From positions 1 through 13,417 of the IMG/VR virus record IMGVR_UViG_2526164690_000043: a DNA stretch of 13,417 nt. One strand, written 5' to 3'. Both the position numbers and the translations under genes were made by a program. The stretch's first letter is position 1; the number at the start of each line of letters is the position of its first letter. Below, in pieces: positions 9,932 to 13,417 of this stretch. Below the pieces are notes generated by a model that was not told the DNA's origin, made no database searches, and saw only the letters and a list, made by a program, of their open reading frames with translations. This DNA comes from a virus (Duplodnaviria; Heunggongvirae; Uroviricota; Caudoviricetes).

Positions 9932-11146
9932 ATGTGGCCTTTTCAGAAGAAAAAAAAGAGCAGCGCTAGCATGACGCTTGATGAGTTTATGGCGCTGGCT
10001 GGCACATCGAACACGGGGGCGGGTGAGTACGTATCATCGGGGACAGCGGAATCACTGCCCGCCGTCATGAACGCCGTCACGGTCATCTCTGAGGCGGTGG
10101 CTACCATGCCGTGTTACCTGTACCTGGTACGCAATGAGAAGGGGAAGGAGGCCCGAGAGTGGCTTGATTCTCATCCGGTCGATCACATCCTCAACGAGCG
10201 CCCGAACGCATGGCAAACCCCCTACCAGTTTAAGCGAATGATGATCCGCCACTGCCTGTTAAACGGTAATGCTTATGCGGTGATTCAGTGGGGGCGTGAT
10301 GGTTTTCCGGTGGCTTTACATCCTTACCCGCCGCAGTCGGTGAACGTTGAGCAGACAGGTGAGCATAACTGGCGCTACTGCATCACTGACGCCTACACCG
10401 GAAACACCCGCAACTATTTACCGTGGGAGGTTCTCCACCTTCGTTACTCCACGGATGACGGTTTTATGGGGCGCTCACCTGTAACCATCTGCCGCGAATC
10501 GCTGGGGCTTGGGCTGGCCCAACAACGCCACGGCGCGAGCGTGATGCGTGATGGCATGATGGCGGCAGGGGTTATCACGTCAGGCGAATGGCTGGACGGC
10601 GTGAAGGGCAAACAGGCATTAGCCGCACTGGAACGCTACAAAGGGGCCAGAAACGCCGGAAAAACGCCCATCCTTGAAGGGGGTATGAGCTATCAGCAGC
10701 TGGGCATGAGTAATCAGGATGCTGAATGGCTGGCCTCCCGTCGCTTCACCATTGAAGACATCGCCCGAATGTTCAACGTCTCGCCGATTTTTCTGCAGGA
10801 ATACAGCAACAGCACCTATAGCAATTTCAGCGAGGCAAGCCGCGCATTTCTCACCATGACGATGCGCCCGTGGCTGGCGAACTTTGAGCAGCAGATAAAA
10901 AACGCCCTGCTGGTGGCCTCGCCTGTACCTGGTATCCGGTATCAGGTGGAGTTTGTACAGCGCGGACCTGTTACGGGCCACACCTGGCGAACGCTTTGCC
11001 ACCTATGAACGCGGCATCAAATCCGGCGTTATGTGCCCGAACGAAGCCCGCGAACGTGAAGGGCTGTCCCGCGTGATGGTGGTGATGAGTTCAGCCAGGC
11101 ATGGAAACAGGAAGTAAAAATCAGCGAGGGAGAAAAACCGGAATGA
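9932..11146 (+). CDS. HK97-family portal protein, with two compensating 1-nt indels near the 3' end
   Basis: The open frame from ATG 9932 stops at 11006-11008. The +1 frame encodes the expected portal C-terminal sequence ...YSADLLRATPGERFATYERGIKSGVMCPNEAREREGLS, and the original frame resumes as PRDGGDEFSQAWKQEVKISEGEKPE with a stop at 11144-11146 that overlaps the next start (ATGA). The breaks are at a TTT/G site near 10952-10955 (extra base) and a CCC run at 11068-11070 (missing base). Confidence 0.82.
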
Positions 11147-11481: not shown

Positions 11482-11774
11482 CAGAAGAACTTATCACCCT
11501 GGAAGAAGTGAAACTCCATTGCCGCATCGATGGCGACGAGGAAGACCAGTTAATCAGCGGATACATTGCCGCATCGCTTGAGGCGTGCCAGATACATATA
11601 GGCAGGCGCTTTGATGACGGGCTGGAGTTCACGCCGGCCATAAAGATTGGCTGCATGATGTTTATCGCTCACCTGTACGAGAATCGCCAGCTGGTAGCGG
11701 ATAACGCAAAAACACGCGTACCCATGACGATAGGCGCACTCTGGACGGCTTACCGTGATGTGGGGGTGTACTGA
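11478..11774 (+). CDS. gp6-like head-tail connector protein
   Basis: 98-aa ORF with an ATGA start overlap. The N-terminal ITLEEVKLHCRIDGDEEDQLISGYIAAS is characteristic of the gp6-like connector / DNA-packaging family. Confidence 0.75.
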   Translation: MTEELITLEEVKLHCRIDGDEEDQLISGYIAASLEACQIHIGRRFDDGLEFTPAIKIGCMMFIAHLYENRQLVADNAKTRVPMTIGALWTAYRDVGVY

Positions 11775-12213
11775 TGCCGTGGCAACCATTAAGACGATGT
11801 ACAGAACCAGGCTGTAACAGGCGCGTTAAGTCCGGCAAGTGTGAGGAGCACAGGCGGGCGGCATGGCGTGCAGAGGATGCCAGACGAGGACACCGCCGCG
11901 CGCGTGGGTACTCCAGACAGTGGGAAAAATACCGCGCCATGTATCTGAGTAAAACCCGTTATGCGTGCGATGCCTTGAGAAGGGGATATATACGCCCGCC
12001 GTGGTGGTGGATCACATTATCCCGATTAATGGCGGTGATGATGTTCTCTTCTGGCCCGAATGGAACCATCAGCCATTGTGCCAGGCGTGTCATAACCAGA
12101 AAACGAAGTGGCTTGATCCGGCAACAAAAAGCAAGCGTGCCGCAGGTGGATTTCGTGAAGAGGAAGAACGGGCCGCTAACCGCAATAACTGGATGTATGA
12201 CGCTGATGAATGA
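11774..12213 (+). CDS. HNH endonuclease (terminase-associated), interrupted by a 1-nt indel at the A run 11951-11954
   Basis: The N-terminal part (MPWQPLRRCTEPGCNRRVKSGKCEEH...RGYSRQWEKYRAMYLSK) is in one frame; the HNH core (NPLCVRCLEKGIYTPAVVVDHIIPINGGDD...WNHQPLCQACHNQKTKW) is in the -1 frame, ending at 12213. AAAA to AAAAA at 11951-11954 joins them. The ORF track's 201-aa read-through from 11774 is an artefact of this shift. Confidence 0.8.
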
Positions 12214-12379
12214 GCGGGAACAAAACCGCCTTATCCGTGGACTTATAAGGCAGCGTGACGCATGGAAGACACAGGAAACAGGGCATAAAGATAAAGCGTC
12301 AGGACGCGCAGAACGCATCACAGCGAAGCGATTAACCGACCGTGACCGCGAGGTTATGGAATGTTTCCGCAATCGCTGA
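12206..12379 (+). CDS. Hypothetical small protein between HNH and the small terminase
   Basis: ATG 12206 overlaps the HNH stop; 57 aa (MNEREQNRLIRGLIRQRDAWKTQETGHKDKASGRAERITAKRLTDRDREVMECFRNR). No recognisable family. Confidence 0.4.
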   Translation: MNEREQNRLIRGLIRQRDAWKTQETGHKDKASGRAERITAKRLTDRDREVMECFRNR

Positions 12380-12501
12380 TGAGGCTGTATGACGGGGTGG
12401 GGGGCGTTTTCAGGACAAACCCGACCCCGCCGGGCACCGAACGCCTCCTCAAATTTTTATGCACGGGAATTTTTTGAAAAATAATCTGGCGAAAAATAAG
12501 C

Positions 12502-12858
12502 ATGGCAAGACCACCGAAAGCCCCCGCCTACCTGAATGACATCGCCGTGAAGCAGTGGCGGGAAAAATCGCGGCAGCTTGCGGAACGGGGAGACCTTACC
12601 CCCGCCGACTGGAGTAATCTGGAACTGTATTGCGTCAATTACTCGATATACCGGAAAGCCGTCGCAGACCTTGCGGCGCGCGGGTTCAGCATTGTTAACA
12701 GTCAGGGTGGCGAGAGCAGAAACCCCGCATTAAGCGCAAAATCCGACGCTGAAAGAGTGATGATAAAAATGGCCTCCTTGCTCGGTTTTGACCCGATAAG
12801 CCGCCGTAAAAATCCACCGGAAACAGAAGAAGAGGACGAGCTTGACCGCCTGGAATAA
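12502..12858 (+). CDS. Terminase small subunit (P27-family-like)
   Basis: 118-aa ORF; WSNLELYCVNYSIYRKAVADLAARGF...NPALSAKSDAERVMIKMASLLGFDPISRRK matches the pattern of P27-type small terminase subunits; acidic C-terminus. Lies directly upstream of the large subunit. Confidence 0.8.
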   Translation: MARPPKAPAYLNDIAVKQWREKSRQLAERGDLTPADWSNLELYCVNYSIYRKAVADLAARGFSIVNSQGGESRNPALSAKSDAERVMIKMASLLGFDPISRRKNPPETEEEDELDRLE

Positions 12859-13417
12859 GTACGCAGAAGACGTAAAAACGGGCAAAATTCCGGCCTGTAA
12901 ACGGCTGAAACAGGCCGTTAAACGGTACTTTTCGGACCTTGAAAGCCCCCTTTACACGTTCGATCGTGAGGTTGTGGAGCGGTTTATTGCCTTTTCCAGG
13001 GTGTGCCCGCACGTAAAAGGGCCGATGCGTGGCAGACCCATTGAGCTGGAGCCGTGGCAGCAGTTCGCCTTTGCGTGCATCCTCGGCTTTAAGGTTAAGG
13101 CCACCGGACGGCGCAAATACACGAGCGCCTTTATCGAAGTGCCGCGCAAAAATGCGAAATCCACGACCGCCGCGATTCTGGCTAACTGGTTTCTGATTAT
13201 GGAGAACGGTCAGCAGGATATCTACACCGCAGCGGTGAGCCGTGACCAGGCGCGGATCGTCTTTGATGATGCGCGTCAGATGTGCCTTTTATCCCGACCG
13301 TTACGCAGGCGGGTGAATATTCAGGCGCATAAGGTGATACACCCGAAAAGCAACAGCCTGTTAAAGCCGCTGGCAGCAAAAGCGGCAACCATCGAGGGAA
13401 CAAACCCCAGCCTTTCC
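12842..13417 (+). CDS. Terminase large subunit, N-terminal part (runs off the window end)
   Basis: Open frame to the window edge. EPWQQFAFACILGFKV...SAFIEVPRKNAKSTTAAILANWFL...YTAAVSRDQARIVFDDA contains the deviant Walker A (PRKNAKST) typical of large terminases. There is no in-frame ATG or GTG after the upstream stop (12797-12799); the only candidate start is TTG 12842, with GAGGA upstream. Confidence 0.8.
   Translation, partial: MTAWNKYAEDVKTGKIPACKRLKQAVKRYFSDLESPLYTFDREVVERFIAFSRVCPHVKGPMRGRPIELEPWQQFAFACILGFKVKATGRRKYTSAFIEVPRKNAKSTTAAILANWFLIMENGQQDIYTAAVSRDQARIVFDDARQMCLLSRPLRRRVNIQAHKVIHPKSNSLLKPLAAKAATIEGTNPSLS

Follow-up and report, generated by a model that had tools for sequence, protein, structure and literature searches.

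The stretch of DNA analyzed here (the window; 13,417 nucleotides of the IMG/VR virus record IMGVR_UViG_2526164690_000043) encodes proteins with Pfam matches to an integrase, a RepA-type helicase, a major capsid protein, a prohead protease and a portal. Further matches are to a head-completion protein and a gp6-like connector (two head-completion proteins in all), an HNH protein, TerS and the start of TerL. There were no tail genes among the window's Pfam matches, and both tail and lysis genes are absent from the closest complete relative, a 15.4-kb island sited between roxA and phoQ in E. coli O103 RM8385 that is 99.65% identical to the window. The window and the RM8385 island have the gene content of a capsid-forming PICI (cf-PICI), with an integrase/replication backbone, head genes and packaging genes in ~15 kb, and the window is an EcCIEDL933-type cf-PICI of E. 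coli. EcCIEDL933 is the cf-PICI prototype (2022 preprint). According to the same preprint, cf-PICIs make their own small capsids, of a size that fits a single island copy, and package only their own DNA via their own packaging genes, HNH, TerS and TerL; a mutational analysis of the EcCIEDL933 packaging genes is also reported there. Cohesive cos ends, seen as cohesive-end concatemers, have been described for the Klebsiella cf-PICI KpCIDSM30104 (2025 preprint). In the literature searched, which included the 2022 preprint, we found no nucleotide-level cos position for cf-PICIs.

The packaging genes lie at the right end of the window. The stretch from HNH to terS (11774-12860) was present in 514 of 5426 complete E. 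coli genomes, and the copies in O157:H7 strains were 98% identical. Compared to the RM8385 island, the window has twelve single-base indels (positions 2639, 6191, 7861, 7895, 9364, 9397, 9944-9967, 10956, 11067 and 11950) that break the prohead protease, portal and HNH genes. The HNH gene is split by the loss of 1 nt in an A run at ~11950 and is intact (441 nt) in RM8385. These indels look like homopolymer or draft-assembly errors. If the frameshifts in HNH, protease and portal were real, this copy would be unable to cut its own cos. The region discussed below is unaffected, because no indel falls between 11950 and 13210.

A 122-bp gap (12380-12501) separates terS from a small ORF that overlaps the HNH gene at its end. 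An initial annotation made from the sequence had put this gap forward as a candidate cos or packaging site. The gap is indeed intergenic: the small ORF ends with a TGA at 12377-12379 and terS starts at 12502. The three strings that the initial annotation had quoted from it, two G/C-rich arms and the element they flank, are each present once in the window: GACGGGGTGGGGGGCG at 12391-12406, TTTTCAGGACAAAC at 12407-12420 and ACCCGACCCCGCCGGG at 12419-12434. The genes and the predicted parts of the gap are as follows.

11774-12213, plus strand: HNH endonuclease gene of the packaging module (Pfam HNH on 11965-12213, E 4e-8)
12197-12379, plus strand: small ORF of 60 aa, overlapping the end of the HNH gene (hypothetical in the RM8385 annotation)
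12391-12416, plus strand: conserved upstream block, GACGGGGTGGGGGGCG plus TTTTCAGGAC, kept across genera and with equivalents in phages
12417-12431, plus strand: variable spacer that takes in most of the right G/C-rich arm (conservation 0.39; no covariation with the G block)
12438-12447, plus strand: predicted 10-nt cohesive end, CGAACGCCTC, aligned with the run-off-mapped SfI cos TGCCCGCCCC
12448-12461, plus strand: most conserved block of the gap, CTCAAATTTTTATG (0.93 at 12452-12461; invariant T run)
12462-12484, plus strand: putative TerS binding site, CACGGGAATTTTTTGAAAAATAA, a GC triplet and T tract assigned by analogy with HK97
12502-12858, plus strand: terS, P27-family small terminase (Pfam Terminase_4, E 1e-23)
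12842-13417, plus strand: 5' part of terL, running off the window (Pfam TerL_ATPase)

The small ORF had no Pfam match. The gap lies between the HNH gene and terS and adjoins terS, which is the position of the cos site in phages with HNH-dependent (HK97/SfV-type) packaging.

We examined conservation in an alignment of the region upstream of terS, with one genome per species from ~30 species of different genera, including Klebsiella, Aeromonas, Citrobacter, Serratia, Xenorhabdus, Erwinia and Pectobacterium. Across these 30 loci, 23 of ~125 non-coding columns were invariant and 30 more were at least 90% conserved, far beyond chance. The conservation is concentrated in two blocks. Mean pairwise identity was 0.80 at 12392-12401, fell to 0.39 at 12422-12431, the lowest value in the gap, and was 0.75-0.93 over 12432-12481, with its peak of 0.93 at 12452-12461. 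By comparison, the small ORF upstream scored 0.04-0.55 and terS coding sequence ~0.75, such that the blocks at 12392-12416 and 12432-12484 are at least as conserved as terS itself across ~30 genera. The left block follows the pattern GGGGTGGGGG(A/G)GG-TTTCAGGACAAA and is followed by a variable spacer of ~15 nt; the right block reads GGCACC(G/A)CCCGCCCCCTCAAATTTTTACGCACGG(T/C)(G/A)ATTTTTTTGAAAATAAAAC. Of the two G/C-rich arms in the initial annotation, the left one (12391-12406) is therefore conserved, and the right one (12419-12434) is mostly variable spacer.

The arms contain an inverted repeat (12393-12402 with 12420-12429) that is 90% complementary over 10 nt. The repeat showed no covariation: 63.5% of alignment cells could pair, which equals the value obtained when the partner was slid by +1 or +2 columns. 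Folding of the gap strand was no better than that of shuffled sequences (z = +0.36). Given the slid-partner controls and the shuffle folding, we rejected a hairpin or cruciform formed by the two arms. A second inverted repeat, between the G block and the cohesive-end region (12400-12408 with 12440-12448), likewise showed no covariation.

To place the conserved blocks among characterized packaging sites, we compared them with phages that carry related terminases. A tblastn search with the island TerS identified related TerS proteins (35% identity) beside an HNH gene in SfV, SfI, SfII, SfIV and ST64B, Shigella and Salmonella phages with a P27-family TerS. In this group, as in the island, cos lies between HNH and terS. 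The HNH-terS gap of SfV and ST64B reads GGGGAGGGGCGGG-TCAAATC...GGAC-TGCCCGCCCC-(A/C)TCG-T tract-ATACCCGCGAAAAATG, and the order of its parts is that of the island: a G-rich block, a spacer of ~30 nt, a C-rich 10-mer, a T tract, a GC-rich triplet and an A/T tract. Run-off sequencing of SfI virion DNA had revealed a 10-nt gap, TGCCCGCCCC, which was taken as the cohesive end (PMC3636060). In a MAFFT alignment, this 10-mer stands opposite CACCCGCCCC in Klebsiella and opposite CGAACGCCTC at 12438-12447 of the window. The C-rich 10-mers themselves differ, TGCCCGCCCC in the SfI group, CGCCCGCCCC as the family consensus and CGAACGCCTC in the window, as do the sequences at the putative TerS site, ATACCCGCGAAAAATG in the SfI group and ATGCACGGGAATTTTTTG in the island. 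The SfI group also differs in spacer sequence and in comprising complete phages with their own tails, and in the island an additional small ORF separates HNH from cos.

HK97 provides a second mapped reference. Its cut is well defined and leaves a 3' overhang of ~10 nt (10 and 12 in two HK97 papers). The architecture of its cos, GGGCAGGGGGGGGG-ATCAAATC...GACCGCCGCCAAA/GTTTG...CTAACCCGATTTTTTT, is the same as in the island, and the HK97 cut aligns 1 nt further on than the SfI end, at 12448/12449. Thus, the SfI end and the HK97 cut both fall at 12438-12448, with equal block order and spacing. Cutting in HK97 and HK106 is HNH-dependent, and both phages share several features with the island: a homologous TerL (the island protein is 32% identical to HK97 gp2, E 2e-13), a cut ~50 nt upstream of terS, a G run ~45 nt upstream of the cut, a C-rich cohesive end, and a TerS site made of a GC triplet and a T tract at +15 to +29. 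G blocks were found at equal distance in SfV, ST64B, HK97, HK106 and the Klebsiella phage ST101-KPC2phi6.3, and the whole cos signature recurs in ST101-KPC2phi6.3, Pasteurella Pmp7 and Moraxella Mcat17. The proposed island cos is related to cos sites whose positions in other phages had been mapped before, and the kind of site is well known.

Further evidence on the position of the ends comes from a Klebsiella relative. LR881103.1, deposited as "Escherichia phage vB_KppS-Ant", is a linear record of 16.5 kb whose assembly used a Nextera XT library made from K. pneumoniae DSM 30104 lysate DNA (source paper). It encodes capsid, portal, HNH-side genes, TerS, TerL, integrase and primase. Its ends match the K. 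pneumoniae ATCC 13883 island exactly (200 nt checked per end), and on account of its gene content and its identity to that island, LR881103.1 is the packaged cf-PICI KpCIDSM30104. In the ATCC 13883 island the two ends map 69 bp apart. The 69 bp absent from the record, GAACACGAGGGCGCCAGGCACCACCCGCCCCCTCAAATTTTTTCGCACGGTGATTTTTTTGAAAATAAA, are centered on the CACCCGCCCC...T-tract core; the 3' end of the record reads ...GGGGTGGGGGAGGTTTTCAGGAC and its 5' start is 22 nt before terS. At its right end, the record still carries the equivalent of the G block and TTTTCAGGAC. These data suggest that the physical ends lie within the 69-bp stretch, downstream of the G block. A loss of a few tens of bases per end would be the behavior of a transposase-based library at true ends, and a circular or permuted molecule would have closed on assembly. 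In principle, the 69-bp gap could be an assembly artefact and not a drop-off at the ends.

Two annotations of this record deserve mention. The source paper calls vB_KppS-Ant a filamentous ssDNA prophage, and a gene of 2.3 kb that follows terL bears the annotation of a tape-measure protein, which seems doubtful for a tail-less satellite.

Another line of evidence emerged from natural variation among the islands. The 80 E. coli islands sampled from IMG/VR fall into two lineages that are 82% identical to the left of the gap and 89% to the right, and four of them (L050, L059, L061 and L096) are hybrids of both. Three hybrids have type 2 sequence and then type 1, and one has the reciprocal order. 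In all four, the parent type switches between the informative sites 12441 and 12459, a 17-nt interval that straddles the predicted cut. The cleanest hybrids, L061, L096 and L050, are nearly of one type per side over 900 nt; L059 is mosaic further to the left. An interval of 17 nt is too short for ordinary homologous recombination to favor, and the pattern is consistent with the joining of cos ends or with break-induced exchange at them. Common descent is possible for the three same-order hybrids, so the recombinations that arose independently number at least two and perhaps only two. The hybrids suggest that cos is a seam for exchange between the HNH/head side and the TerS/TerL side.

The block conservation, the gap in the virion-derived record, the alignment with the SfI and HK97 sites and the hybrid breakpoints all indirectly support the initial annotation in placing a cos site just upstream of terS. 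We conclude that 12380-12501 very probably holds the island's own cos, where its own terminase cuts and begins packaging, and consider it likely that the gap is a cos region built as in phages with HNH-dependent, HK97/SfV-type packaging. Based on the alignments, we place the predicted top-strand cut at 12447/12448, to within a few nucleotides; it most likely lies ~15-30 bp downstream of the G/C-rich motifs highlighted in the initial annotation. The conservation, the homologous layout, the 69-bp gap and the hybrid breakpoints were observed, and from them we infer where exactly the nicks fall, the polarity of the overhang, which bases TerS binds and what the G block does.

We considered three other explanations for the gap. 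The first, closest to the initial annotation, is that the G/C-rich arms (12391-12406 and 12419-12434), as an inverted repeat around TTTTCAGGAC, are themselves the site of recognition and cleavage. The 90% complementarity of the arms over 10 nt, the strong conservation of the left arm and the G runs upstream of the cut in HK97, SfV and ST64B are in keeping with this idea. However, the arms pair no better than slid partners or shuffled sequence, and most of the right arm overlaps the stretch where conservation in the gap is lowest. In the alignment, the SfI and HK97 cuts stand opposite 12447-12448, and the hybrid breakpoints lie at 12441-12459. Furthermore, the right end of LR881103.1 still includes both the G block and TTTTCAGGAC, so the cut lies downstream of them. 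We therefore regard cleavage at the arms as highly improbable; the cut and the probable TerS site are both downstream of them.

The second explanation is that the gap is mainly an expression signal for terS and terL, such as a promoter, terminator, leader RNA or translational operator, with cos elsewhere in the island. The gap is directly upstream of terS and contains an A/T-rich palindrome, TTTTTTGAAAAA, that might serve as an operator for a protein or bend the DNA. A scan of the gap, by contrast, identified no terminator-like site, no promoter-like site on the plus strand and no Rfam match; with no stable conserved stem and no known RNA family, it has the character of neither an intrinsic terminator nor a structured RNA. 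Moreover, the conserved blocks are arranged as at the mapped cos sites of three phage groups, and an expression signal would leave the gap in the virion record and the hybrid breakpoints unexplained. We consider this explanation highly improbable. Finally, a pac site with headful packaging is scarcely credible: pac phages too have TerS recognition sites beside terS, but HNH-associated terminases of the island's type are cos systems (HK97, SfI), cf-PICI DNA reportedly forms cohesive-end concatemers, the size of the capsid fits one copy of the island, and headful DNA would assemble as a closed circle, whereas the virion-derived LR881103.1 is linear with a discrete 69-bp gap and is not the circularly permuted, terminally redundant DNA of a pac element.

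Returning to the cos reading, we asked where TerS might bind. The minimal TerS site of HK97 spans +15 to +29 from the cut, CTAACCCGATTTTTT, and combines a C:G pair read by Arg128 with an A/T tract whose shape matters (PMC11331095). Counted from 12448, positions +15 to +29 of the window are CACGGGAATTTTTTG (12462-12476), in which a T6 tract again follows a GC triplet; this putative site is conserved at 0.75-0.86. By analogy, 12462-12484 is probably the TerS binding site. The assignment is by analogy only, because the island and HK97 TerS proteins are not similar in sequence and the match between their folds is weak. BLAST detected no similarity between the island TerS and HK97 gp1, and a comparison with PDB chains gave no sequence match. 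With an AF2 model of the island TerS (pLDDT 70), the top five PDB fold matches in Foldseek were all HK97 TerS chains (6z6e, 8pop), at weak scores (E ~0.8-1.1, TM 0.43-0.62).

The N terminus of the island TerS reads MARPPKxP (12502-12525); across genera, R3 and K6 are nearly invariant and P5 and P8 invariant. This recalls the basic N-terminal arm of HK97 TerS (K4, R5 and R7), which lies in the DNA minor groove (PMC11331095).

These comparisons suggest a working model for island packaging. After excision and replication, the P27-family TerS of the island would bind the GC triplet and T tract upstream of its own gene, at ~12462-12484. TerL, aided by the HNH protein, would then make staggered nicks ~15 nt further upstream, leaving 12438-12447 (CGAACGCCTC) as a 10-nt cohesive end. 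Packaging would proceed rightwards from terS into the island's small capsids and stop at the next cos. The packaged DNA would begin, at its left end, with the block at 12448-12461. The block at 12391-12416 would be at the right end, ~30-55 nt before the predicted cut, and because packaging would run rightwards from terS to the next cos, the G block and TTTTCAGGAC would be the last to enter the capsid. They may have a role in termination or in the TerL/HNH side of the reaction, making this block a candidate for a cosQ-like or TerL/HNH-side element.

The logic of the proposed site is shared with lambda cos (cosQ-cosN-cosB), which likewise has an upstream termination element, a nicking site and a downstream TerS-binding region by the terminase genes. 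Lambda differs in its 12-nt 5' overhang, Nu1-type TerS and IHF sites and in working without an HNH protein, and we know of no sequence similarity between lambda cos and the island cos. Other satellites are also packaged from a cos site, including P4, SaPIbov5-type cos SaPIs and Rpp-type E. coli PICIs. These either contain the cos of the helper or redirect its TerS; by contrast, the island has its own cos, TerS, TerL and HNH.

The proposed map bears on packaging specificity. The cos region of HK106, the experimentally used helper, is nearly identical to that of HK97. Compared to the island cos it has the same layout and a different sequence, with CGCCGCCAAA as cohesive end and CTAACCCGATTTTTT as TerS site, and each terminase would therefore package only its own DNA. 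These differences probably account for the mutually exclusive packaging that the 2022 preprint describes for EcCIEDL933 and HK106, and they fit the suggestion in the initial annotation that an island-specific cos would explain selective packaging of island DNA. The four-part map of G block, 10-nt end, T-rich core and probable TerS site makes this selectivity directly testable and can be compared side by side with the differing HK106 site.

More tentatively, the upstream G block could be an element common to HNH-dependent cos sites, and the ends of different cf-PICIs could anneal or recombine at cos; these readings are possible, if somewhat doubtful. In the first, a G block and (T)TCA-rich motif ~30-55 nt upstream of the cut would be read by the conserved TerL-HNH pair, acting like lambda's cosQ or as a docking site for HNH, and co-resident elements would be told apart by the 10-mer and the TerS site alone. 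In the second, cos would be the preferred seam for shuffling HNH-side (head) and TerS/TerL-side modules between satellite lineages.

The blocks of the gap also provide a short signature for locating the packaging origins of such satellites, examples being vB_KppS-Ant and Pasteurella Pmp7, both deposited as phages. The Pasteurella "phages" Pmp7 and Pmp8 (10.7 kb and 15.3 kb) have a TerS that is 65% identical to that of the island, and in Pmp7 (OR544138.1; positions 520-682 of locus L128) the cos signature reads GGTGGGGG...ACCGCCCCCCC...AAATTTTTACGCAAGG.... Both are probably cf-PICI-type satellites.

Finally, one island has lost the core of the region. In Shigella flexneri SFBU1023 (CP182556.1; ~1500-1506 of locus L005), ~90 bp are deleted between two CCCCGCC repeats. 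The deletion corresponds to 12432-12521 of the window, and the entire cos core is missing along with terS codons 1-7. This island is a natural cos-minus, terS-minus derivative and should be immobile.
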